Below the pieces are notes generated by a model. The model was given only the letters and a program-made list of their open reading frames with translations, searched no databases and was not told the origin of the DNA. This document shows, in pieces, positions 5,314 through 60,241 of a stretch of DNA of 64,000 bases. The stretch's first letter is position 1. Each line of letters starts with the position of its first letter. The translations under genes and the position numbers were made by a program. This DNA comes from Prochlorococcaceae cyanobacterium (lineage in GTDB: Bacteria > Cyanobacteriota > Cyanobacteriia > PCC-6307 > Cyanobiaceae). The stretch lies in contig JBIIIC010000014.1 in the NCBI GenBank assembly GCA_044235095.1, positions 2,382 to 66,381 of the forward strand, in the 5' to 3' direction.

Positions 5314-7461
5314 ATGAGCAAGCCAGTCCTGCCCCCGGAGCTCTACATCAACCGGGAGCTGAGCTGGCTGCAGTTCAATCGGCGGGTGCTGGCCCAGGCA
5401 CTGGATGAGCGCACGCCTCTGCTGGAGCAGGCGAAATTCAGCGCCATCTTCAGCAACAACCTCGACGAATTCTTCATGGTTCGCGTGGCCTCGCTCAAGT
5501 CGCAGCTGGAGGCCGGCGTGAGCGAACTGAGCGACGACGGGCGCACCCCCCGCCAGCAGCTCGATGCCATCCAGGAGGACCTGCGCCCCCTGCTCAGCCT
5601 GCAGCAGCAGCACTACCGCCATTTCCTTAAACCCCACCTGGCGGAATATGGCGTGCAGGTGCTCGACTACCGCCAACTCAACGCCGCGCAGAAGAACTGG
5701 GCCGACGACTACTTCCGTCGCGCCATCTTCCCGGTGCTCACGCCGCTGGCCGTGGATCCGGCCCACCCGTTCCCGTTCATGAGCAACCTCAGCCTCAACG
5801 TGGCGGCTGAGATCAGTGATCCCGACACCGGCCAGCAGCAATTTGCCCGCATCAAGGTGCCGCAGAAGATTCTGCCGCGCTTCGTGCAACTCCCTGCGGA
5901 GCTGAGTGCTCAGGATCCCAGGCCGGTGTTTGTGGCGGTGCCGCTCGAGCAGCTGGTGGCCTTCAACCTGCAGCTGCTGTTTCCCGGCATGACCGTGGAG
6001 GGGCACTACTTCTTCCGGGTCACCCGCGATGCCGACCTGGAACTGCGCGACCTGGAAGCCGACGACCTGATGGAGTCGCTCCAGGAGGGGCTGCGCAAGC
6101 GCCGGCTGGGCGGCGAGGTGGTGCGCCTGGAGGTGGCCGACGAGATGCCCGAGCGCGTGATCCAGCAGCTGATCGAGGGCACAGGCGTGGAACCCGCCGA
6201 CCTCTACCGGATCAATGGCCCCCTGGGTCTCGACGACCTGATGGGACTGTTGGCCATTTCTCTGCCCAGCCTCAAGGACAAGCCCTACACCGGCCGCACC
6301 AGCAAGGCCCTGGCCCGCGCCCAGCGCAGTCAGCTGCAGGACGGCTCGATCAAGGAAGAGGAATTCGAGAGCATCTTCCGGGTGCTGCGCCAGCGCGATG
6401 TGCTGCTGCACCACCCCTTCGATCTGTTTGCCACCTCGGTGGAGGAATTTCTCAACCAGGCCGCCGACGATCGGGATGTGCTGGCGATCAAGATGACGCT
6501 CTACCGCACCAGCAAGGGCTCACCGATCATCGCCGCCCTGATCCGCGCCGCCGAAAAGGGCAAGCAGGTGATGGCCCTGGTGGAACTGAAAGCCCGCTTC
6601 GATGAAGACAGCAACATCCAGTGGGCCCGCCAACTGGAGAGCGCGGGGGTGCATGTGGTGTATGGCGTGCTGGGGCTGAAGACCCACACCAAGGTGATGC
6701 TGGTGGTGCGACGTGAGAAACAGAATCTGCGCACCTACGTGCACATTGGCACCGGCAACTACAACTCCAAGACTTCGAGCCTCTACACCGACTACGGCCT
6801 GCTCAGCTGCCGCCCCGACCTGGGAGCCGATCTGGTCGAATTGTTCAACTACCTCACCGGTTTTTCCAAACAGCAGAGCTTCCGCAAGCTGCTGGTGGCA
6901 CCGGTGACCCTGCGCAAGGGCATCGAGGAGCGCATCCGCCGCGAAATCGACTTCGCCCGTTCAGGTCGGGGCGGACGCATCCGCGCCAAGATGAATGCCC
7001 TTGTGGATCCGGCGATCATCGCCCTGCTCTACGAGGCCTCCCAGGCCGGGGTGGAGATCGACCTGGTGGTGCGCGGCATGTGCAGCCTGGTGCCCGGGAT
7101 GCCGGGCGTGAGTGAAACCATCCGGGTGGTGAGCGTGATCGGCCGCTTCCTGGAGCACTCACGGCTCTACTGGTTCGGCAATGGCGGCGAGCCCGAGATC
7201 TTCATCGGCAGCGCCGACTGGATGCCGCGCAACCTCGACCGACGGGTGGAGGCCCTCACCCCGATCGAGGATCTGGAGCTGCGCCTGCGCCTGGAGCAAC
7301 TGCTCGATCTCTACCTCAACGACAACCGCTCCGCCTGGGACATGCAGAGCGATGGCAGCTTCGTGATGCGGCAACCCGAGGGCGAGGAGCGCCAGGTACA
7401 ACGCCAAATGATGGAATGCTGGCGCGGGGGCGTGCTGCAACTGGAAAGCGGCGCCAGCTGA
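5314..7461 (+). CDS. ppk: Polyphosphate kinase 1
   Basis: Internal ATG at 5314 of ORF 4942..7461 gives MSKPVLPPELYINRELSWLQFNRRVL, the typical PPK1 N-terminus. 715 aa with PLD-like HxK-type C-terminal domains (THTKVMLVVRRE, EHSR). Confidence 0.95.
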   Translation: MSKPVLPPELYINRELSWLQFNRRVLAQALDERTPLLEQAKFSAIFSNNLDEFFMVRVASLKSQLEAGVSELSDDGRTPRQQLDAIQEDLRPLLSLQQQHYRHFLKPHLAEYGVQVLDYRQLNAAQKNWADDYFRRAIFPVLTPLAVDPAHPFPFMSNLSLNVAAEISDPDTGQQQFARIKVPQKILPRFVQLPAELSAQDPRPVFVAVPLEQLVAFNLQLLFPGMTVEGHYFFRVTRDADLELRDLEADDLMESLQEGLRKRRLGGEVVRLEVADEMPERVIQQLIEGTGVEPADLYRINGPLGLDDLMGLLAISLPSLKDKPYTGRTSKALARAQRSQLQDGSIKEEEFESIFRVLRQRDVLLHHPFDLFATSVEEFLNQAADDRDVLAIKMTLYRTSKGSPIIAALIRAAEKGKQVMALVELKARFDEDSNIQWARQLESAGVHVVYGVLGLKTHTKVMLVVRREKQNLRTYVHIGTGNYNSKTSSLYTDYGLLSCRPDLGADLVELFNYLTGFSKQQSFRKLLVAPVTLRKGIEERIRREIDFARSGRGGRIRAKMNALVDPAIIALLYEASQAGVEIDLVVRGMCSLVPGMPGVSETIRVVSVIGRFLEHSRLYWFGNGGEPEIFIGSADWMPRNLDRRVEALTPIEDLELRLRLEQLLDLYLNDNRSAWDMQSDGSFVMRQPEGEERQVQRQMMECWRGGVLQLESGAS

Positions 7462-16328: not shown

Positions 16329-18713
16329 TCAGCGCGGGCTCTGCTTCGTTATAGGGAGGTCGTGGAGGGCTGCCCAAAGCTGGCCCAGGGCCAGGCCCCC
16401 ATCGTTACAAGGCAGTTGCTGGGGCCAGAACGGCTCCAGCCCGCGGCGGCGCAGGGCCTGGGCCGTGAGCTCAAGGAGCAGGGCGTTCTGGAAGCAGCCG
16501 CCCGCCAGCGCCACCTGGCGGCAGCCGCGCTCGCGGGCCGCCTGTGCGGCCAGCACCGCCAGGCCCTCGGCCAGGCTGCGGTGCAGCCAGAGCGCCGATC
16601 GGGCCGGTGGCACCCCGGCCGCCTGATCGGCCAGCAGCTGCTCGATGAGCGGTTGCCAGTTGAGCCAGCCGCGCTCCGGATCGGCCAACAGGCCGGATTC
16701 CGCCACCGCTGCGGAGCTGCCAGCGGCCAGGGGCTGGCGCGCCAGCTCCTGCTGCGCCAGCCCCTCCAGCCGCAGCCCCGCCTCGCCCTCGTAGCTCTGC
16801 TGCTGGCACACCGCCAGCAGGGAGGCCGCACCATCAAACAGACGCCCCAGCGACGAGCACAGCGGCGCCTGCAATCCGGCCGCGGTGGCCGCCGCCAGCA
16901 GATCCCAGCCCTCGGGGCCGGCCAGCGCCGCGGCCGCGGCCCGGCAGGAGGCAGGGGCCTGGGCCCCGCGCCGATCGCCCGCCGCCACCAGCAGGCCCAG
17001 GGCCACCCGCCAGCACTGGCGCATGGCCGCTTCGCCGCCGGGCAGGGGGAAGGGGCGCAGCCCCGCCAGACGCTGAAAGCCACGCGGCTCCAGCCAGAGC
17101 AGCTCGCCGCCCCAGAGCTGGTGGCCGGGGGCGCCTGGAGCCAGGCCGAGGCCGTCGCAGGTCCAGGCCAGCAGCGGCAGAGGCAGCCCCTGCTCGGCCG
17201 CCACCGCCAACCCATGGGCGCGGTGGTGCTGCACCCGCAGCAGCGGCAGCCCCCGCTCCCGTGCCAGGCGGGCCGCCAGGGCCTGGCTCACGTAGCCGGG
17301 ATGGCCATCGACGGCAATCGCCTCCAGCTGGGCGCCGTAGCGGTCGGTGAGTTGGGCCAGCCCCTGCTCCAGCCAGCGCTGGTGCCGGGCGCCGGCCAGG
17401 TCGCCCAGGTGGGGCGCCGGCCAGCAATGACCGGCATGCAACAGCGCTGGCGCACTCTTGAGATCACCGCCCAGGGCCAGCAGGCTGCGCCCGGCATTCG
17501 GCGAGTGCGGCAACGCCAGCGCCGCCGGCACGTAGCCGCGGGCGCGGCGCAACAGGGCCGGCCGCTCCTCCAGCAGCTGCAGCAGGGAATCATCGAGCGG
17601 CCGGGCGATCGGCCGGTTGTGCACCAGAAAGCCATCGGCGATCCCGGCCAACCGCTCCCGGGCCTCAAGCGGATCGATGCAGAGCAGCTCGCCGCTGCGG
17701 TTGCCACTGGTGGCCACCAGGGGCCGCTCCAGCGCCGCCGCCAGCAGCTGATGCAGCCCCGAGGCCGGCAGCATCACCCCCAGGGCGGCGCTGCCCGGCG
17801 CCACACCCGGCAGGGCTTGCCAGGCGTCGGGCCGCCGCGGCAACAGCACGATCGGCGCCGCCGGCGCCCGCAACTGCCGCTCGGCCTCGGGGCTGAGCTC
17901 CACCCAGGGGGCCGTCTGAGCGGCATCGGCCACCAGCAGGGCAAAGGGCTTGGCGGGCCGGCCCTTGCGCCGCCGCAGCCGAGCCACCGCGTTGGCCGCG
18001 GTGGCATCCACCAGCAGCTGGAAGCCGCCCACCCCCTGCAGGGCCAGGATGCCGCCGCCGCGCAGCAGCTCAGCCGCCCCCTCCAGGGGATCGCCCGGCA
18101 GCGTCGCCCCATCCGCACCCCAATAGGCAAGCCGCGGCCCACAGGCTGGGCAGCCGATGGTTTCGGCGTGGAAGCGGCGATCGACCGGGTTGTGAAACTC
18201 GGCCTGGCAGGCGGGGCAGAGCGGAAACGCAGCCAGGGTGGTGTGGGCGCGGGCGTAGGGCGCGGCCGTGGCGATCGAGTAGCGCGGGCCGCAGGCGGCG
18301 CAGCTGATGAAGGGATAGCGGTGGCGGCGGCTGGCGGGATCGTGCAGCTCAGCCAGGCAGGCGGGGCAGGGGGCCAGATCGGCCACCAGGGCCGGTGCCA
18401 CCAGGCCCACACCCAGGGGCTGGGGGTCGGCGGCGGCGATGCGCAGGCCGGCCGGCGCCGGATCGAGGGGCGGGAGCCATGCGGGCTGCAACGGCTCCAG
18501 TCGCGCCGGCGCTGGCAGGGCCCCAGGCAGCTCGCGCAGCAGCGCCTCCAGTGCCGGCCGGGGGCCCTGCAGCTCCAGCCTCACGGCCCCGGCCACGTTT
18601 TCGATCACCCCAGCCAGGCCCCGCGCCGCCGCCAGGCGATGCACCAGGGGCCGGAAGCCCACCCCCTGCACCACGCCGCAACAGAGCAGCCGCAACCGGA
18701 CCGGCGGGCTCAC
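16329..18713 (-). CDS. hypF: Carbamoyltransferase HypF
   Basis: 794 aa. Acylphosphatase-like N-terminus (GVVQGVGFRP), paired CxxC zinc fingers (CPACLAE, CAACGPR, CPACQAE, CPACGPR), and YrdC and Kae1-like domains. GTG start overlaps the hypB stop. Confidence 0.95.
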   Translation of the reverse strand: MSPPVRLRLLCCGVVQGVGFRPLVHRLAAARGLAGVIENVAGAVRLELQGPRPALEALLRELPGALPAPARLEPLQPAWLPPLDPAPAGLRIAAADPQPLGVGLVAPALVADLAPCPACLAELHDPASRRHRYPFISCAACGPRYSIATAAPYARAHTTLAAFPLCPACQAEFHNPVDRRFHAETIGCPACGPRLAYWGADGATLPGDPLEGAAELLRGGGILALQGVGGFQLLVDATAANAVARLRRRKGRPAKPFALLVADAAQTAPWVELSPEAERQLRAPAAPIVLLPRRPDAWQALPGVAPGSAALGVMLPASGLHQLLAAALERPLVATSGNRSGELLCIDPLEARERLAGIADGFLVHNRPIARPLDDSLLQLLEERPALLRRARGYVPAALALPHSPNAGRSLLALGGDLKSAPALLHAGHCWPAPHLGDLAGARHQRWLEQGLAQLTDRYGAQLEAIAVDGHPGYVSQALAARLARERGLPLLRVQHHRAHGLAVAAEQGLPLPLLAWTCDGLGLAPGAPGHQLWGGELLWLEPRGFQRLAGLRPFPLPGGEAAMRQCWRVALGLLVAAGDRRGAQAPASCRAAAAALAGPEGWDLLAAATAAGLQAPLCSSLGRLFDGAASLLAVCQQQSYEGEAGLRLEGLAQQELARQPLAAGSSAAVAESGLLADPERGWLNWQPLIEQLLADQAAGVPPARSALWLHRSLAEGLAVLAAQAARERGCRQVALAGGCFQNALLLELTAQALRRRGLEPFWPQQLPCNDGGLALGQLWAALHDLPITKQSPR

Positions 18714-19426
18714 GCCGGCACCGGCAGCCCCAGCTCCTCGATCAGGGCGGCGACCCCCGCCCCGGTGCGGGCCGACACCTCCAGCACCCGGGCCCGCGGC
18801 GCCACCCGGGAGAGATGGGCGCGGGTGTGGGGCAGATCAAAGCCGGTGGCCTCCAGCAGGTCCAGCTTGCTGATCAGCACCAGATCGGCCGAGTGAAATG
18901 TGGCCGGGTATTTGAGCGGCTTGTCTTCCCCCTCGGTCACCGAGAGCAGCACCAGCCGCCGGGTCTCGCCCAGGTCGTAGGCGGCCGGACACACCAGGTT
19001 GCCCACGTTTTCGATCACCAGCAGATCGAAGGCCTCCAGGGGCTCGGGCAGGGCCGCGAGGGCCCGCTCCACCATGGCGGCCTCCAGGTGACAGGCCTGG
19101 CCGGTGGTGATCTGCACCGCCGTGAGGCCGGCGGCCTGAAGCCGGCGGGCGTCGTGGTCGGTGGCGAGATCGCCCACGATCACCGCCACGCGCCGGCCGG
19201 CGGCCGTGAGCTCGGCGCCGAGCCTCTCCAGCAGGGCGGTCTTGCCCGAACCCGGCGAGGAGAGCAGGTTGAGCACCGGCAGGCCGGCGGCGGCGAAACG
19301 CTCCCGCAACCGGGCGGCCAGGGCGTCGTTGCGGGCGAGCAGCGCCTGGCCCAGCTCCAGGTGCACGGGCAGCTGCCTGGGCGCCTGCTCGGGCGCCGGC
19401 GCACTGCAGCCACAGTTGCCGCACAT
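18710..19426 (-). CDS. hypB: Hydrogenase nickel-incorporation GTPase HypB
   Basis: MCGNCGCS N-terminal metal site, GSPGSGKT P-loop and ENVGNLVCP motif. Confidence 0.95.
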   Translation of the reverse strand: MCGNCGCSAPAPEQAPRQLPVHLELGQALLARNDALAARLRERFAAAGLPVLNLLSSPGSGKTALLERLGAELTAAGRRVAVIVGDLATDHDARRLQAAGLTAVQITTGQACHLEAAMVERALAALPEPLEAFDLLVIENVGNLVCPAAYDLGETRRLVLLSVTEGEDKPLKYPATFHSADLVLISKLDLLEATGFDLPHTRAHLSRVAPRARVLEVSARTGAGVAALIEELGLPVPA

Positions 19427-19505
19427 GGCCGCTCAAGCGGGACTTTCAGGCTAGGCCGGAAACCAGGCCCTGCCTAGCATCCGGGCCAGGAACGGGAGAG
19501 ATCAC

Positions 19506-21497
19506 GTGCAGAGCCTGCTGCTCGACATCGTGGTGATCTTCGGGATGTCGGTGCTGGCAGCGGTGGTGTGCCACAGGCTGCGGCTGCCGAGCTCGATCGG
19601 CCTGCTGCTGGCCGGCGTGCTGGCCGGCCCGGAACTGCTGGGCCTGATCCGCAACGTGCACGAGATCGAGCTGCTGGCCGAGATCGGCGTGGTGCTGCTG
19701 CTGTTCGTGATCGGCCTGGAGATCTCCGTGGCTGATGTGAAGCGGCTCAAGCGCCAGTTCACCGTGGGCGGCAGCGCCCAGTTCTTCGGCACGGCGCTGG
19801 TGGTGGCGCCGGTGCTGGCGGCCCTGGGGCTTGGGGCGGCGCAGAGCGTGTATCTGGGTTTCGTGGTGGCCCTCTCCAGCACCGCGATCGTGCTGCGGCT
19901 GCTGCAGGAGCGGGCCCAGCTGGAAACGCCCCACGGCCGCGCCGTGCTGGCCACGCTCATCTACCAGGACATCGGCGTGGTGCCGGTGATGCTGATGGCA
20001 CCGCTGCTGGCCGGCGGCGCTGCGGGCGCGGCGGGCGCGGCGGGGGCCGGGAATGGGCTGGCGGCGATCGCCAGCCTGATCGGCCGGATCGTGATCGTGG
20101 CCGTGTTCGGCTATGCGGCCTACCGCTGGGTGGTGCCCTGGGTGCTGGAGCGGATCACCCGCACCCGCAGCTCGGAAGCCTTCCTGCTTGGGGTGTTCAT
20201 GCTCTGCGTGGGCATCGCCGTGTTCACCCAGTCGCTGGGGCTGTCGCTGGCCTTGGGGGCTTTTCTGGCGGGCTTCATCCTGTCGGAATCGGATTACTCG
20301 CACCAGGCGGTGGCGGTGATGCTGCCGTTCCGCGACGTGCTGATGAGCCTGTTCTTCGTGTCGATCGGCATGCTGCTCGACATCAACTACCTGGCGCGCC
20401 ACCCGCTGGAGATCGGCCTGCTCACCCTCGGCGTGGTGGTGATCAAGCCGCTGGTGGGAATCGGTTCAGGCCTGCTGCAGGGGCTGCCGCTGCGCGGGGC
20501 CGTGCTGGCCGGCATGGCGATTGGCCAGGTGGGGGAGTTTTCGCTGGTGGCCACCAAGGCGGCGGTGGGCACCGGGCTGCTGGGCAGCGAGATCTTCCAG
20601 ATGGTGCTGGATGTGGCCGTGCTGAGCATGGTGCTCACGCCGCTGTTGATGGCGACGGCGCCGCGGCTGGCGGATCGGCTCAGCCGTACGCCCCTGGCCC
20701 GGCTGCAACACCGCTCGCTCGGCCCGACGTCTGGCGAGGGCGGGCCGGCCTATTGCAGCCACGTGCTGATCATCGGCTTCGGCGTGACCGGCCGCAACCT
20801 GGCCCACAGCGCCCGCCGCAGCGATGTGCCCTACGCAGTGGTGGAAACCAACGCGGCGATCGTGCGCCAGGGCCTGGCCGACGGTGAGCCGATCCACTAC
20901 GGCGACGCCAGCCAGGCGCCGATCCTGGAGCTGGTGCACGCCGAGAAGGCGCGGGCAATCGTGGTGGTGATCGACGATCCCGCCGGCGCCCGCCGCATCG
21001 TGGAGCTGGCGCGGCGCGTGGCGCCTGATGCCTACATCCTGGTGCGCAGCCGCTACCTGCGGGAGGTGGAGCCACTGATCAGCCTCGGCGCCGATGAGGT
21101 GATCGCCGATGAGCTGGAGGTGTCGATCGAGGTGTTCTCGCGGGTGCTGGCGCGGATGCTGGTGCCCCGCGACGACATCAAGCGCCTGATCGGCGAGGTG
21201 CGCGGCGACTGGCGGCAGATGGCCCGCGGCCTGGCCGCCGAGGCCACCTCGGTGCCCGATCTGCGCGTGGCCGTGCCGAATCTGGCCACCCATACCCTGC
21301 GGCTGTCGCCCCACTCACCGCTGGTGGGCCGCACGATCGCCACCAGCGGCCTGCGCCAGAGCCACGGCGTGACCGTGCTGGCGATCACCCGCGGCGGCAC
21401 ACCCCTGGCCAACCCCACGGGCGACACCAGCTTCCAGAAGGGCGATCTGGTGTTCGTGATCGGCCCGGAGCAGTGGGATCCGGCCTCGATCAACTGA
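19506..21497 (+). CDS. CPA2-family monovalent cation:proton antiporter with C-terminal RCK (TrkA-N and TrkA-C) domains, KefB-like
   Basis: 663 aa with a GTG start. About 12 TM segments, then VLIIGFGVTGRNLA (Rossmann, TrkA-N), then a TrkA-C-like end. Confidence 0.88.
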   Translation: MQSLLLDIVVIFGMSVLAAVVCHRLRLPSSIGLLLAGVLAGPELLGLIRNVHEIELLAEIGVVLLLFVIGLEISVADVKRLKRQFTVGGSAQFFGTALVVAPVLAALGLGAAQSVYLGFVVALSSTAIVLRLLQERAQLETPHGRAVLATLIYQDIGVVPVMLMAPLLAGGAAGAAGAAGAGNGLAAIASLIGRIVIVAVFGYAAYRWVVPWVLERITRTRSSEAFLLGVFMLCVGIAVFTQSLGLSLALGAFLAGFILSESDYSHQAVAVMLPFRDVLMSLFFVSIGMLLDINYLARHPLEIGLLTLGVVVIKPLVGIGSGLLQGLPLRGAVLAGMAIGQVGEFSLVATKAAVGTGLLGSEIFQMVLDVAVLSMVLTPLLMATAPRLADRLSRTPLARLQHRSLGPTSGEGGPAYCSHVLIIGFGVTGRNLAHSARRSDVPYAVVETNAAIVRQGLADGEPIHYGDASQAPILELVHAEKARAIVVVIDDPAGARRIVELARRVAPDAYILVRSRYLREVEPLISLGADEVIADELEVSIEVFSRVLARMLVPRDDIKRLIGEVRGDWRQMARGLAAEATSVPDLRVAVPNLATHTLRLSPHSPLVGRTIATSGLRQSHGVTVLAITRGGTPLANPTGDTSFQKGDLVFVIGPEQWDPASIN

Positions 21498-21866
21498 TCA
21501 GCGGTCACCCAGCTCCAGGGCCGCCAGCTCCAGCTCGCGGCGATAGAGCGGCAGGCCAGCGCGCGCGATGTGGGCCAGCAGTGCTGGATGGGAGATGGAA
21601 GCAAGGCGGGAGAGGTCGATCACCCAAGGCAGCAACAGATCATCGAGATCAGCATCGATGCGGGCCAGGGTGCCGGCGCTGAGAGCCGGACCGATCAGGG
21701 TGAGATCGATATCGGAGGCGGGGCGGTGGCGACCCAGGGCACGTGAGCCGTAGAGGATTGCGGATTCCACCTCGGGATAGGCGAGCAAGACCTGCTGAAT
21801 GGCGCGAATGGCGGAATCCGGCAGGCCCGTGGGTTGGGGGGTGGGTTTCGACGCAGTCGTGGTCAT
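21498..21866 (-). CDS. Nucleotidyltransferase-domain protein (MntA / HI0073-like antitoxin candidate)
   Basis: 122 aa with the pol-beta NTase motif YGSRALGRHRPASDIDL. ATGA overlap with the upstream HEPN gene. The C-terminal RELELAALELG is identical to the HypA C-terminus. Confidence 0.8.
   Translation of the reverse strand: MTTTASKPTPQPTGLPDSAIRAIQQVLLAYPEVESAILYGSRALGRHRPASDIDLTLIGPALSAGTLARIDADLDDLLLPWVIDLSRLASISHPALLAHIARAGLPLYRRELELAALELGDR
21508..21540. repeat. Copy A of a 33-nt imperfect direct repeat (hypA 3'-end-like sequence)
   Basis: CCCAGCTCCAGGGCCGCCAGCTCCAGCTCGCGG here against CCGAGCTCCAACGCGGCCAGCTCCAGCTCGCGG at 22327-22359. 29 of 33 positions are identical by my alignment. 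Confidence 0.85.
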
Positions 21867-22285
21867 TGCGAATCGTTGCTCAGCGCTGCGAAACGCTCCC
21901 GCAGCGCGCCAAACAGGAATGCAAAGCGATCGATCACATCGTGGGCGATCGCCTGGGCCTGCTCGAGGTTGTAGGTGTGCGAAGACTGATTGCGGGCCTT
22001 GATCATCGCCATCCAGCCCTCGCCATCGCTGATCAACCCATTCTGAAAGGCCAGGCGGGTGGCATCGCGTGAGCCGATGATCCCCTCTATCCCCTGGTAC
22101 TGCAGATAGTCCTTGAGCAGATTCCAGGCCAGTTCATGGGTGAATTCAAAGCTCTGAATCAGTCCCTGCTGCTCCAGTTCGCTCAGGGGGCGTTGTTGGG
22201 CCAGCTGCACGCCACGACCCAGCACCTGCAGCGCCCGCTGGAAGTTGTCGAACCGCTGCCGCCAGCGGAGATCCACCTCTGCCAT
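21863..22285 (-). CDS. HEPN-domain protein, nucleotidyltransferase substrate-binding HI0074 family (HepT-like toxin candidate)
   Basis: Third in-frame ATG of ORF 21863..22453 (alternatives 22303 and 22318). The MAEVDLRWRQRFDNFQRAL N-terminus is typical of the family. It has the Rx4H motif RNQSSH. Confidence 0.8.
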   Translation of the reverse strand: MAEVDLRWRQRFDNFQRALQVLGRGVQLAQQRPLSELEQQGLIQSFEFTHELAWNLLKDYLQYQGIEGIIGSRDATRLAFQNGLISDGEGWMAMIKARNQSSHTYNLEQAQAIAHDVIDRFAFLFGALRERFAALSNDSQ

Positions 22286-22322
22286 GGGGCCAGCCTTCAA
22301 CATGGCTCTGTGGAGCATCCTG

Positions 22323-22664
22323 TCAGCCGAGCTCCAACGCGGCCAGCTCCAGCTCGCGGCCCTGCAGCAGCTGGCGGCTGAAGGCGCCGCAGCGGGGGCA
22401 GAGGCAATCGCCCTGCCCGGCCTCGAAGGGCTGCTGGCAGGGCTCGCAGGCAAAGCGGGCGACCACGGTGTCGATCTGCAGCGCCGCCCCCTCGGCCGCT
22501 GTGCCGGCCATCACCACCTGATGGGCGAAGCGCAGCGCCTCCGGCTCCACGCCGGCCAGGCTGCCGATGCGCAGGCGGATCACGGCGATGCGGCCACCGC
22601 CATGGGCCCGGGCCTGCTCCAGGGCCAGATCGCGCACCGCTTCCATCAGGCTCAGCTCATGCAT
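22323..22664 (-). CDS. hypA: Hydrogenase nickel-insertion protein HypA
   Basis: 113 aa with an MHELSL start and a CEPC...CPRC zinc site. Confidence 0.92.
   Translation of the reverse strand: MHELSLMEAVRDLALEQARAHGGGRIAVIRLRIGSLAGVEPEALRFAHQVVMAGTAAEGAALQIDTVVARFACEPCQQPFEAGQGDCLCPRCGAFSRQLLQGRELELAALELG
22327..22359. repeat. Copy B of the 33-nt imperfect direct repeat (native hypA 3' end)
   Basis: See copy A at 21508-21540. The two copies bracket the complete HEPN/NTase gene pair, 819 bp apart. Confidence 0.85.
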
Positions 22665-23136
22665 GGCCAGCCAGCCACTGGCGCAGCAGGGCGCGGGCCT
22701 GGGGCAGGGCCGCGCGCAGCTCGGCTGAGAGCGCCGTGCCGTGATCGAAGGCCGTGGCCGGCACCAGCAGCAGCTGGGCCTCGGGGGCCCGACCGTAGAG
22801 GGCCTGGCTTACCGCAAGCAGGGCGGCCGGCTCCAGCCGGTGGCTGTCGGCGCCTGCCCCGGCGCTGGTGCCTGCGGCTGCGCCCGCCGGGCTGAGCGGC
22901 TGCAGCTGGGGCGCGGCCCCCGCAGGAGCCGGCCAGGCATCGATGAACAGCACCCGCTGAAGCCGAGCCAGTTCGGCGGCCAGCTCAGGGGTGAGCTGCT
23001 GCATGCAGCGCACCGCCACCGGGCCCGCGGGATCGGCGGCGGTGAGCACCGCCGCCTGCTCGGCCAGCAGGGCGCCCACGCCGTCGTCGCCGCGCAGGGG
23101 ATTGCCGATGCCGATCACCAGGCGACTGGCAGCCAT
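22657..23136 (-). CDS. hoxW: Hydrogenase maturation endopeptidase HoxW
   Basis: Internal ATG at 23136 gives MAASRLVIGIGNPLRGDDGVG, the HycI/HoxW protease signature. ATGA overlap with the hoxH stop and an 8-nt overlap with the hypA start. Confidence 0.85.
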   Translation of the reverse strand: MAASRLVIGIGNPLRGDDGVGALLAEQAAVLTAADPAGPVAVRCMQQLTPELAAELARLQRVLFIDAWPAPAGAAPQLQPLSPAGAAAGTSAGAGADSHRLEPAALLAVSQALYGRAPEAQLLLVPATAFDHGTALSAELRAALPQARALLRQWLAGHA

Positions 23137-24596
23137 CAATCCCGCACCCGCTCCGCCAGCACCCGCCCACCCGCATCCACCAGCGCAATCCGCAGCGGCA
23201 TCTGGCCGGCGGCGTGGGTGCTGCAGCTCAGGCACGGGTCGAAGCAGCGGATGCCCGCCTCCACCCGGTTGAGCAGGGGCTCGGGGATCTCGGCGCCCTC
23301 CGCCACCGGCTCGCTGATGAACTCCCGGGCGATCTGGGTCACGGTGCGGTTCATCGCCAGGTTGTTCTGGCCCGTGGCGATGATCAGGTTCACGCGGGTG
23401 ATCAGGCCCTCGTCGTTCACCCGGTAGTGGTGAAACAACGTGCCGCGCGGTGCCTCGCTCACCCCCACCGCCTCGTTGGCGTTGAGGCTGGCGTGGGCGC
23501 GGATGCGGCCACCCATCAGGCGCTCATCGGCCACCAGCTGCTCGATCCCCTCCAGGCAGGCCACGATCTCCACCAGCCGGGCATGGTGATACGCAAATGA
23601 GGAGGTCACAACCCTGCCGCCGCTCTCGGCCGTGCCGCTGCGCTGGCGAAACTCCGCCAGCTCCCGATCAGCCCACTCCGTGCCGATGTGCTCGCACCCA
23701 TTCAGCCGCGCCAGCGGGCCCACCCGGTAGATCCCCTCCGGATAGCCGAGCGGCTTGTAATAAGGAAACTTCAGGTAGCTCCAGCTCTCCACCGCCTCGC
23801 CCAGGAAATCGGCGTAGTCGTCTTCGCTGAGGCCGTCGGCCACGATCCGGCCCGTGCTGTCGATGAAGCGGATCGCCCCCTCGATGCACTCCCAGCTCCC
23901 ACCTGTGCCCACCAGGCCCATGAACAGCGACGGGAAATCGCCAAAGGTGCGCTGCTCCCGCTGCAGCGGCCCATCCAGCAGCGTTTTGTAGAGCTCCAGC
24001 GCCTTGGCCACCGTGGCCTTGGCCTCCGGCAGCCGCTGCAGGATCCAATCCCGGGCCTCCGCGCTCAACGGCGTGCGCACGCCACCGGGCACCGCCCAGG
24101 CCGAATGGATCCTGCGGCCGCCCAGCAGCTCCAGCACCTGCTGGCCGAACTGGCGCAGCCGGATGCCGGCGCGGGCCAGCTCCGGATCGGCAGCCATCAG
24201 GCCAAACACATTGCGCCGGGCCGGATCGCTCTCCCAGCCCAGCAGGAAATCGGGGCTGCTCAGATGAAAAAACGAGAGGGCGTGGCTCTGGCAGAGCTGG
24301 GCCAGGTTCAGCAGTCGCCGCAGCTGCCGCGCCGCCGGTGGCGGCTGCACCGCCAGCAGCTTGTCGCCGGTTTTCGCCGCGGCAAGGAGGTGGCTCACCG
24401 GACAGATGCCGCAGATCCGCGCCGTGATGCCCGCCATCTCCGTGAATGGATGGCCCTCGCAGAAGGTTTCAAACCCCCGATACTCCACAACGTGGAAGCG
24501 GGCATCGCTGAGCCGCCCGGCTTCATCGAGGTGCAGGGTGATCTTGGCGTGGCCCTCGATGCGGGTCACCGGGTCGATCGTGATCGTGCGGGTCAT
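23136..24596 (-). CDS. hoxH: Bidirectional [NiFe] hydrogenase large (catalytic) subunit HoxH
   Basis: Internal ATG at 24596 of the 797-aa track ORF. MTRTITIDPVTRIEGH start, RICGICPVSH N-terminal Ni-binding motif and DPCLSCSTH C-terminal motif. 486 aa. Confidence 0.95.
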   Translation of the reverse strand: MTRTITIDPVTRIEGHAKITLHLDEAGRLSDARFHVVEYRGFETFCEGHPFTEMAGITARICGICPVSHLLAAAKTGDKLLAVQPPPAARQLRRLLNLAQLCQSHALSFFHLSSPDFLLGWESDPARRNVFGLMAADPELARAGIRLRQFGQQVLELLGGRRIHSAWAVPGGVRTPLSAEARDWILQRLPEAKATVAKALELYKTLLDGPLQREQRTFGDFPSLFMGLVGTGGSWECIEGAIRFIDSTGRIVADGLSEDDYADFLGEAVESWSYLKFPYYKPLGYPEGIYRVGPLARLNGCEHIGTEWADRELAEFRQRSGTAESGGRVVTSSFAYHHARLVEIVACLEGIEQLVADERLMGGRIRAHASLNANEAVGVSEAPRGTLFHHYRVNDEGLITRVNLIIATGQNNLAMNRTVTQIAREFISEPVAEGAEIPEPLLNRVEAGIRCFDPCLSCSTHAAGQMPLRIALVDAGGRVLAERVRD

Positions 24597-58272: not shown

Positions 58273-58360
58273 TCAGGAGCTTTGATCGGCCGAAGGTGAA
58301 CGGCAGGCTGGTCCACCCGGGGTGCCCACCCTATGGTTTGCGGAGCTATCGGTGGTGTCG

Positions 58361-60241
58361 ATGCGCCGTTCACTCGCAGCTCTGGCCCTAGCGGTGGTGT
58401 TGCCGATGCCGGCCCTGATGGGCGGCAAGGTGCACGCCGATGTGGTGGTGAAGCCCGGTGAAACGCTCTCTGAAATCGCCGATCGCCATGGGGTGAGCCT
58501 CACCCGGCTGATGCAGGCCAACGGCATCGCCAACCCCGACCTGGTGGTGGCTGGCACGCGCCTGGTGCTTCCGGGCAGTGGCGCCAGCAGCGGCAATCGC
58601 GGCAGCTCAGGCAGGAGTGGCGGCACCGTCACGGTGCAACCGGGCGACACCCTGTCCGACATCGCCGCCCGCCATGGGATGAGCGTGAACCGACTCATGC
58701 AGGTCAACGGCATCACCAACCCCGATCTGGTGGTGGCTGGCACGCGCCTGGTGGTGAATGGCGGCAGCGGCGGCACCGGCAGACGCACCGCCGCAGCACC
58801 GGCCCCATCCCTGCCCACCGCCCCCTACACCGTGAAGAGTGGGGAAACGCTCTCGGAGATCGCCGATCGCTTCGGAACAACCACCGATCGCCTGATCCAG
58901 CTCAACCGCATCAGCAACCCCAACCTGGTGGTGGCAGGCACCCGTCTGGCGGTCCCGGGGCGCCCCGCAGCAACGCCCCGCAGCTCCGGCTCGGCCAGCA
59001 GCGCCAAACCCCAGAAACATGTGGTGCAGGAAGGTGAGAGCCTCTCGGCCATCGCCGATCGCTACGGCATGAGCGTGGACCGGCTAATCGCCATCAACGC
59101 CATCAGCGACCCCGACCTGGTGTGGGCCGGCTCCCACCTGAAACTGCAGGCTCCGCCGGCTCCGAAACCGGCTCCGCGGCCTACCGCCCAGGCCAAGCCC
59201 AAACCCGCCGCAAAGCCGGCTGCGGCCAAAACAGCCAGCCCCAAACAGCCAGCCTCCCAGCCCCAGCTGACCGCAAGGCCGGCCACAACCGCGACAGCAA
59301 CAACCGCGACGGCCGCCACCCCGACCCCCAAACCACAGCCCCAGGCCCAGGCCCAGGCCCAGCCAAAGCCGCAACCCCAGCCGCAGCCACAGGTCCAGGC
59401 CCAACCCGTTGCTCAAGCGCAACCCGTTGTTCAAGAGCAAGCCATGGTCCAACCGGTTGCCCAGGCTCAGCCGGCACCCCGCCCCCAGCAGGCTGCCCAG
59501 GCGGCCGCCACCCCATCCCCTGTCGCCCGCAACGCCACAGCCACGGTGGCGTCAGCCTCAGCGGCCCCAGCCACAGCTGCCGCAACCGCAGGTTCCACAG
59601 CCGCAGGTTCCGCAGCCCCAGGCACCGTCCGCCCATCGATAGCGATGGCGACCACAGCCGCAGCCACCCCCACAACCAGGAGTACAGCAGCGGCAACCGA
59701 GCCGGCGGTGCGCTCCGTGGCCTCGGCCACAGGCCAGCCCAGCACAACCCTCTGGGCAGCCCAGACCACCACCAAATCCCAGGCCAGCAGGAGCATCACG
59801 TCTAGGTCCACTCCCACAGTCGCGACTGCAACCACAACCTCGACCACAACCTCGACCACAGGCGCTACCGCGACCGCAGCCACGACTGCAGCCGCAGCAA
59901 CGGCCAGCGCCCAGGCCACCCCCGCGACCCGAGCCGCCACAACCAGGCCCACCACGGCCGCCCCCAAGACATCCAGCAAGACCGCTACCAGGCCAGGCGG
60001 AGCCGAATGGCGCAGCTATGGCCCCCTGCAGGTCGACTGGTCGAACTGGCAACCGATGGGCGGCAGCTACGTGGCTCCCACCCTCAACGGTGATGGGCAG
60101 GCCCTTTATCTGGCGGTGAATTGCGGCGCCCGCAAGCTCAATGCCACCAGCCAGTCGGGCCAGTGGAAGAGCTGGGATTCCCCCCAGACCGACTTCGAGC
60201 AGCAGCTGATCGCCGACCTCTGCAAGGCCAAGGGCTCCTGA
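58361..60241 (+). CDS. Secreted protein with four LysM repeats, a long Ala/Thr/Pro/Gln low-complexity linker and a conserved C-terminal domain
   Basis: ATG at 58361 gives the signal peptide [21 protein letters not shown]. The four LysM units ([27 protein letters not shown]..., and so on) lie between about 58440 and 59150. Confidence 0.85.

Follow-up and report, generated by a model that had tools for sequence, protein, structure and literature searches.

A HypA-derived antitoxin tail marks a probable insertion scar of a HEPN-MNT cassette at the hypA/kefB junction of a cyanobacterial hydrogenase cluster

A stretch of 64,000 nucleotides (nt) from a Prochlorococcaceae cyanobacterium, with 70% guanine plus cytosine (GC) and here called the window, carries the hydrogenase genes hoxH-hoxW-hypA and, close behind hypA, a pair of HEPN and MNT-type nucleotidyltransferase (NTase) genes. 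The peptide RELELAALELG in the C-terminal tail of this NTase is native to HypA and foreign to the NTase, and the two genes are bracketed by a direct repeat that matches the hypA 3' end. With a probability of roughly 0.8, the cassette was inserted duplicatively at the overlapping junction between hypA and a convergent kefB-like gene, and the NTase reads into the displaced hypA tail. The structure is a scar that gave the antitoxin a chimeric C-terminus; the toxin-antitoxin (TA) module it belongs to is of a known kind, and no new kind of system is involved. The relatives of the region are Cyanobium/Prochlorococcaceae metagenome-assembled genomes (MAGs), and near-identical copies of it are present in lake-water metagenomes; relatives are referred to below by L numbers and NTase homologues by P numbers. 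The features of the scar, with their positions in the window and their lengths in nt or amino acids (aa), are:

22327-22359, minus strand: left (hypA-side) copy of the direct repeat, encoding HypA R103-G113
21508-21540, minus strand: right (NTase-side) copy of the direct repeat, read as the displaced hypA 3' end, adjoining the kefB stop as at the empty site
21501-21539, minus strand: chimeric C-terminal tail of the NTase, R110-R122 (RELELAALELGDR), outside the Polbeta domain and in place of the usual 5-residue tail of the family
22323-22664, minus strand: hypA, nickel metallochaperone, 113 aa (PF01155 and TIGR00100), ending in GRELELAALELG and the stop
22286-22322, minus strand: spacer of 37 nt between hypA and the HEPN gene, from reading of the sequence
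21863-22285, minus strand: HEPN gene, putative toxin of 140 aa, HI0074 family (PF08780, TIGR01987)
21498-21866, minus strand: MNT/NTase gene, putative antitoxin of 122 aa (PF18765/PF01909), its start overlapping the HEPN stop (ATGA)
19506-21497, plus strand: kefB-like K+/H+ antiporter gene, 663 aa (PF00999, Na_H_Exchanger, with TrkA_N and TrkA_C)

The two 33-mers are equal at 29 of 33 positions, with an exact core of 19 nt, and when a 1-nt gap is allowed the similarity widens to 22322-22360 versus 21504-21541. An exhaustive scan of the window over all direct offsets gave only four clusters of 33-mer pairs with at least 29 matches, one of which is the hypA/NTase pair, while the other three come from repeats within a LysM-like protein at 58.5-58.9 kb. 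Furthermore, each 13- to 18-mer of the repeat core occurs exactly twice in the window, no further near-copy of the 33-mer was found there, and 100 dinucleotide shuffles gave 0 hits. A 33-nt direct repeat with 29 matches had been proposed in an earlier, sequence-only reading of this DNA, and both the alignment and the window-wide scan bear it out. The same reading had both proteins ending in the identical peptide; RELELAALELG is indeed common to HypA R103-G113 and NTase R110-G120, but the NTase runs on with DR and ends in RELELAALELGDR. Between the two copies in the window 5 of 11 codons differ, all synonymously (a GGC/GGT difference just outside the 33-mer included). The LysM-like protein, which holds the sole other direct repeats of at least 29/33 in the window, is a 639-aa open reading frame (ORF) at 58322-60241 with four LysM-like repeats, recognized as LysM by eye, and a long Pro/Ala/Gln/Thr-rich region.

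The tail can be assigned to HypA because the HypA profile covers it, because 17 cyanobacterial HypA orthologues end in the shared pattern G[RQ][ED]L.L..[LV][ED][LV]x, and because NTase homologues lack it. HypA is a full-length member of its family, matching PF01155 over profile positions 1-111 of 112 (E 1e-29) and TIGR00100 with 89.3 bits (cut-off 88.1), and its translation shows the MHE N-terminus and two CxxC pairs (MHELS…CEPC…CPRC). On the NTase side, the Polbeta profile (PF18765) spans residues 23-111 (E 5e-12). When the tails of the best 120 homologues, out of 3,312 hits, were compared, 118 ended in LYRR plus a short unrelated tail, mostly xDxPD (115 aa), and only two had a HypA-like tail that aligned, namely P0001, which is 99% identical and from the same lineage, and P0002, which is 80% identical and ends in LYRREPALTSLALS. 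The canonical tail is likewise present in 24/24 cyanobacterial cassette copies from other genomic contexts. Thus the suggestion that the NTase had acquired a tail from HypA, and the accompanying expectation that orthologues in unrelated contexts would be without it, both held. HypA tails themselves vary between even close lineages (AALELG, AALELA, ASLELS). In an AlphaFold2 model of the NTase (mean predicted local distance difference test score, pLDDT, 79) a short helix is predicted at residues 110-120, with a pLDDT of about 71, after the last core strand; this predicted helix follows from composition and is no evidence of function, and the NTase most likely just tolerates the borrowed tail as a passenger.

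The scar can be compared with alleles that lack the cassette. The closest relatives of the window are L141, a Prochlorococcaceae MAG, and L152, a contig from a JGI metagenome, with nt identities to the window of 89% for hoxW-hypA and 94-95% for kefB, and both are free of the cassette. At this empty site hypA ends in GRELELASLELS and the stop (…RELELASLELS; CTC AGT TGA), overlapping the convergent kefB stop by 8 nt. Occupied and empty alleles therefore exist side by side, so that the insertion polymorphism for which the sequence-only reading had called was found, and its idea of an insertion or recombination scar at the hypA 3' end is supported by the empty alleles of L141 and L152 and by an occupied one in L036. 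In scans for further sites, a pattern scan of genome collections gave, among 33 hits, only the contig of L001 and L141, and a single scan of metagenomes gave one locus, L152. Contigs of four lake metagenomes carry the arrangement of the window, and none joins across the cassette site, though contigs drop rare variants.

L036, a contig of 66.9 kb from ENA, is more distant (84-87% nt identity) and has exactly the gene order of the window: genes for the hox diaphorase and the small subunit, recognized by Pfam, precede hoxH-hoxW-hypA-HEPN-NTase, and after the convergent kefB-like gene come hypB-hypF-hypC. The junction codon at which its NTase passes into a HypA-type tail is that of the window (LYR|RE). 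The flanking duplication of L036 (5421-5515 versus 6328-6409) has 71 matches in 95 columns with one 13-nt indel, and its kefB 3'-end part (5463-5515 versus 6357-6409) has 49/53 matches. Because this duplication includes the end of kefB, the duplicated unit is the junction of the hypA tail with the kefB end and is larger than the hypA tail alone. The NTase-side tail of L036 has drifted to REPALTSLALS, with four amino-acid replacements, a pattern that shows no apparent constraint on this tail.

Two other relatives bear on the site. L001, also close to the window, has a 187-nt noncoding spacer between hypA and kefB (L001:3021-3207), in which an 8-nt piece of the hypA tail, CCTGGAGC, adjoins the kefB stop. 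This piece may have been left behind by another event at the hypA/kefB junction. The whole spacer was also considered as a decayed scar and was rejected as such, since beyond CCTGGAGC its gapped alignment is marginal (p about 0.04) and it has no similarity to the cassette. L039, a short metagenome contig, has a cassette 98.7% identical to that of the window and a kefB end 91.7% identical; over 73 nt of the kefB 3' end (L039:898-970 versus window 21401-21473) there are 10 mismatches, whereas the final 24 nt of kefB and the repeat have none. The distribution of these mismatches reflects either a recombination breakpoint or an assembly chimera.

The following course of events would account for these alleles. 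At the ancestral site, hypA and the convergent kefB-like gene would have overlapped by 8 nt, as they do in the allele that is still extant, and a HEPN-MNT cassette, of a kind common elsewhere in picocyanobacterial genomes, would have landed at their junction. Because the two genes overlap, an insertion that keeps both of them whole must duplicate the junction, and the surviving structure would consist of hypA with its tail (and a part of kefB), the cassette, a second tail and kefB. In L036 the duplicated unit would still be about 95 nt long, made up of the hypA tail from codon R103 and 53 nt of the kefB 3' end, and in the window only the hypA-tail part of the duplication would be kept in recognizable form (33-39 nt). 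The right-hand junction lies in a GCCGC microhomology (…TAT CGC CGC in the NTase gene versus …GGC CGC GAG in hypA), and this microhomology, together with a cassette without recombinase and an NTase truncated by five codons, argues for illegitimate rather than site-specific recombination. This step would have cost the NTase gene its own stop and the five codons before it, and its frame would have continued into the displaced hypA tail. Recombination from repeat to repeat would restore precisely the empty allele of L141 and L152.

Several observations weigh against this account. No significant remnant of kefB was found in the 37-nt spacer of the window, with p values against shuffles of 0.35 for the kefB 3' end, 0.07 for the empty allele and 0.87 for the spacer of L036, so that L036 alone demonstrates the longer duplication. 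The cassette is absent from the nearest relatives but present in the more distant L036, which requires either a precise loss or two insertions. In addition, A109 and G113 are present in both copies of the window, versus S109 in the copies of L036 and in the empty alleles, and this sharing, together with five differences that are all synonymous, is not expected if there was simply one old duplication, after which the NTase copy drifted neutrally. Possible contributors to the purely synonymous divergence are gene conversion, selection on the tail and the import of a hypA allele. The insertions of the window and L036 may go back to one event or may have arisen independently. The common synteny, the common junction codon and the fact that the two cassettes are among each other's nearest relatives point to one event; the residues at 109 and 113 point against it, as does the cassette of L153, which lies in a canonical context and is slightly closer to that of the window (84.2% identity, versus 82.4% for L036), although these identities do not decide between a single and an independent origin.

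Among the other explanations, the one that deserves most attention, although it is itself doubtful, is that a segment running from the hox genes through hypA and the cassette was imported as a block from another lineage through homology-facilitated illegitimate recombination, one crossover taking place in homologous sequence farther upstream among the hox genes and the other, illegitimate, at the GCCGC microhomology in the resident hypA tail. The two tails would then be diverged hypA alleles and not the products of a duplication in situ, which fits the five synonymous differences, as expected of two working hypA ends, and also the position of the junction within a microhomology. The synonymous divergence of the copies (5/11 codons) is at least that between the genes of the window and L036, for which 0.15-0.34 of codons per gene differ synonymously (0.06-0.20 against L141/L152). 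Relative to L152, moreover, kefB diverges by 5.6% of nt and hoxW-hypA by 10.8%, and the L039 cassette is nearly identical to that of the window, yet its kefB end is clearly less so. The discontinuity argument is weakened, however, by hoxW evolving faster than kefB in all comparisons and by L039 being a short metagenome contig. A block import also requires a donor with the cassette directly 3' of hypA, none of which was found outside the present arrangement, and because HypA tails differ in close lineages, the same peptide in two independent alleles would be a coincidence. Selection for the HypA-derived tail in the antitoxin, either as a helix standing in for alpha-4 or as a mimic of the HypA C-terminus tied to hydrogenase maturation, would explain why there are 0 nonsynonymous and 5 synonymous differences, since a random change is synonymous in 28% of cases and 0.28^5 = 0.002; the AlphaFold2 helix, of moderate confidence, and the importance of the alpha-4 helix in other MntA proteins (PMC11586414) could be read in the same sense. 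By comparison with outgroups, however, no more than one or two of the five changes belong to the NTase copy, the rest having occurred in hypA, where purifying selection is expected. So few changes in the NTase copy and the four replacements in the tail of L036 make selection on the tail very unlikely; in addition, 3 residues past the equivalent Tyr are enough for the L. pneumophila MNT to work, and a helix is expected from composition alone for a string such as ELELAALEL.

That the cassette represents an integrative element, or once belonged to one, with the repeat as attL/attR and replacement of the gene 3' end, is scarcely credible, even though the insert is bracketed by direct repeats, an intact hypA end has been regenerated, and an unrelated insert in L017 has a second flank duplication of about 90 nt, there of the hoxW 5' end. 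The 819-nt unit consists of two TA genes only and has neither integrase nor transposase, the cassette occurs in many unrelated contexts without hypA-like flanks, the length of the duplicated flank varies by lineage, and the junction lies inside the NTase ORF and truncates it, unlike in an element with defined ends. An integrase-borne element was rejected on the first two of these grounds. A transposon or insertion sequence was rejected as well, as there is no transposase ORF, the duplication measures 33-95 nt, and the sole inverted match (I1) comes from the repeat itself, which is palindromic and GAGCTC-rich. The odds of a chance resemblance between Leu/Glu/Ala-rich, GC-rich coding stretches, or of a native NTase tail that happens to resemble HypA, are close to nil. 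The repeat core does contain the low-complexity unit CAGCTCCAGCTC, and at such a genomic GC content the most frequent residues are L, A, E, G and R, but there are only 4 such pairs among all position pairs of the window, three of them in the repeat protein, the core words are confined to the two copies, homologues are without the tail, and empty as well as occupied alleles exist; the homologue tails, the empty alleles and the pair scan together rule this explanation out.

The gene pair itself is best read as an intact type VII HEPN-MNT TA module of the HI0074/Legionella subtype. The HEPN protein matches PF08780 with 149 bits (cut-off 31.8; E 7.5e-44) and TIGR01987 with 93.3 bits (cut-off 55.8) and is 56% identical over 135 aa to the HEPN of L. 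pneumophila (lpg2920, PDB 8XDJ; E 2.6e-46). It has the RX4HXY motif as R98-N-Q-S-S-H103-T-Y105, and its Q44 and E47 align identically to the L. pneumophila HEPN. The NTase, which is 47% identical over 99 aa to the L. pneumophila MNT (lpg2921, PDB 8XEH), reaches 46 bits against PF18765 (cut-off 26.9) and carries G40-S41…D52-I-D54 (GSx10DxD). The Rx4H and GSx(n)DxD motifs, the ATGA overlap and the 37-nt gap behind hypA, all noted in the sequence-only reading, were confirmed by the sequence and by the profile searches. The roles of the RX4HXY residues, of the acceptor Tyr and of the metal site at Q44/E47 are described in PMC11586414. Since Q44, E47, R98-x4-H103-x-Y105 of the HEPN and G40-S41, D52-x-D54 of the NTase are all present, the module appears intact, and by homology with lpg2920/lpg2921 the HEPN RNase would be neutralized through AMPylation of Tyr105 by the MNT. 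In L. pneumophila, poly-AMPylation of Tyr105 in the RX4HXY motif switches the toxin off; the MNT that carries it out is without the long alpha-4 helix found in other MntA proteins (PMC11586414). Against the MntA equivalog NF047752, the partner of the DUF86-type HepT, the NTase of the window scores 44.1 bits, below the cut-off of 60; it is probably MntA-like in action though it stands outside that equivalog family. PADLOC reported no listed defence system, with no hit for the HEPN and partial hits of the NTase to the candidate families PDC-S09 and PDC-M05A. The order with the HEPN gene first had been taken for a reversed and unusual one, which proved mistaken, as among 79 related loci, drawn from many phyla, there are 72 with the NTase gene downstream of the HEPN gene, 4 in which it overlaps the end of HEPN and none in which it lies upstream.

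In its usual contexts (L153:400-2282, and also L056, L046, L052, L053 and L001), the cassette has a second MNT-type NTase gene 4-6 nt past the NTase stop, and this gene is often frameshifted or truncated. In L153 and L056 a gene for a type I restriction R subunit then follows, and L001 keeps an EcoEI_R_C fragment.

Neither a consensus terminator nor a sigma-70-like promoter was found on either strand in a scan of 21300-23300. In 24 of 27 cyanobacterial cassettes (including L001, L010, L036, L040-L059 and L072) a TAnnnT hexamer stands at -12/-11 from the HEPN ATG, with no Shine-Dalgarno sequence; L036, for example, retains TAGCCT at -12. The variable middle of the hexamer suggests a -10 element, which would give a leaderless mRNA. 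In cassette copies from other phyla, ribosome sites of the AAGGAG type take its place. In the window (within 22286-22297) and in L039, TAnnnT is replaced by AAGGCT, which leaves a Shine-Dalgarno-like GAAGG 8 nt before the HEPN ATG, and the hexamer is changed only in the lineage of the window, L056 not being judgeable because of a misplaced start. As the hexamer is lost and the HEPN gene lies 37 nt behind hypA with no terminator between them, the cassette is probably read through from hypA, and its expression as the tail of a hoxH-hoxW-hypA transcript, as the sequence-only reading had proposed, is plausible. Metatranscriptomes gave only two runs with 6% of words, too few for use.

Upstream of hypA, the remaining genes of this candidate transcript are:

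22657-23136, minus strand: hoxW, hydrogenase maturation endopeptidase, identified by its ORF and translation and by synteny with L036
23136-24596, minus strand: hoxH, whose stop shares one base with the hoxW start

The hoxW gene is thus coupled both ways, by the one base shared with hoxH and by an 8-nt overlap of its end with the start of hypA. The called genes of L036 that were used for synteny include HoxH (PF27537) and HypA (PF01155). On the other side of the cassette, the kefB-like gene is convergent with the NTase gene, and their stops directly abut (TGA|TCA). Beyond it are hypB and hypF, so that a gene of opposite orientation separates hypA and the cassette from hypB-hypF and splits one hox-hyp cluster (window 16329-21497); the layout in L036 is identical. 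An in-frame length variant of hoxW is seen in contigs of three lake metagenomes (X1-X3), which omit 42 nt (window 23011-23054) and have CCACCG instead.

The hoxH-hoxW-hypA region looks like an insertion hotspot. Four further relatives have unrelated inserts between hoxH, hoxW and hypA. L007 carries a PIN-domain gene and a small partner between hoxH and hoxW (L007:2808-3469), L005 carries LemA-DUF2207 between hoxW and hypA (L005:1598-3971), and L017 has an AAA-ATPase insert in the hoxH-hoxW-hypA stretch (L017:700-2950). The latter is flanked by a duplicate of the hoxW 5' end of about 90 nt, 76/90 identical (L017:721-810 versus 2907-2996), which lies 2.2 kb upstream of the intact hoxW. HEPN-MNT copies occur at two other positions as well, between hoxW and hypA in L010 (L010:3169-3917) and, with a canonical tail, about 1 kb upstream of hoxW in L001 (L001:440-2158). 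Two independent flank duplications were seen, one of about 90 nt at the hoxW 5' end (L017) and one of about 95 nt at the hypA/kefB junction (L036 and the window). It is nevertheless improbable that the 3' part of the hox-hyp cluster is a hotspot of recurrent, integrase-free cassette insertion that duplicates about 90 nt of the flanking gene end and leaves the host genes intact. If a defined mechanism lay behind it, for example recombination in which incoming DNA bridges the sister chromosomes of a polyploid cell, this would amount to a new way of acquiring gene cassettes. A literature search on the hox/hypA region of picocyanobacteria gave no report of such cassettes.

The locus offers a natural example of a selfish two-gene module entering a site of overlapping genes, with the overlap duplicated and both neighbours surviving, and of an incoming gene re-terminated by host coding sequence. 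It suggests that the C-terminus of this class of MNT antitoxins tolerates replacement, and it adds a freshwater cyanobacterial member to the recently characterized HEPN-MNT systems of the Legionella type. For annotation it is a warning, as the 11-residue peptide common to HypA and the NTase is a recombination scar and not a shared domain. Furthermore, the repeated uptake of TA and other small cassettes at hoxH-hoxW-hypA may be of interest for work on the flexible genome islands of picocyanobacteria.

Comparison with known systems concerns both the scar and the module. Integration with replacement of a gene 3' end is known from prophage 21 and element e14 in icd of E. coli and from many elements in tRNA genes. 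The window shares with icd-type integration a direct repeat of the host 3' end, a gene that stays intact and copies that differ mainly synonymously, whereas its insert has no integrase or defined ends, its junction truncates a cassette gene, and the length of the duplication depends on the lineage. Homology-facilitated illegitimate, or microhomology-mediated, recombination occurs in naturally transformable bacteria. The 5-nt GCCGC junction and the joining of foreign DNA beside a homologous anchor are features in common with it; the events here, in contrast, were not directly observed, and neither donor nor intermediate was found.

For the module, HI0074/HI0073 of Haemophilus influenzae and TTHA0048 (PDB 1JOG, 1WTY) belong to the same PF08780/TIGR01987 family and have the same two-gene architecture, but HI0074 and TTHA0048 are much more distant in sequence from the HEPN of the window (E 2e-11 and 1e-16). 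In the HepT/MntA pairs the mntA gene comes first. As far as described in PMC7641770 and PMC11586414, the MNT of these pairs (SO_3166/SO_3165 of Shewanella oneidensis; HEPN/MNT of Aphanizomenon flos-aquae) AMPylates the Tyr of RX4HXY in the HEPN RNase. The AMPylation logic would thus be shared, but those HEPNs are of another family, the HEPN of the window having matched only PF08780, and their MntA has a long alpha-4 helix (PMC11586414), unlike the kind of NTase found here. Closest of all is the HEPN-MNT system of L. pneumophila (lpg2920/lpg2921; PDB 8XDJ, 8XEH, 8XEM, 8XEO; PMC11586414). The pair of the window differs from it in lying inside a hydrogenase gene cluster, probably without a promoter element of its own, and in the 12-residue foreign, hypA-derived extension of its MNT. 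Common to both are the kind of HEPN, the RX4HXY motif with Y105 as AMP acceptor, Q44/E47, a short MNT without the long alpha-4 helix, and overlapping genes with the HEPN gene first.

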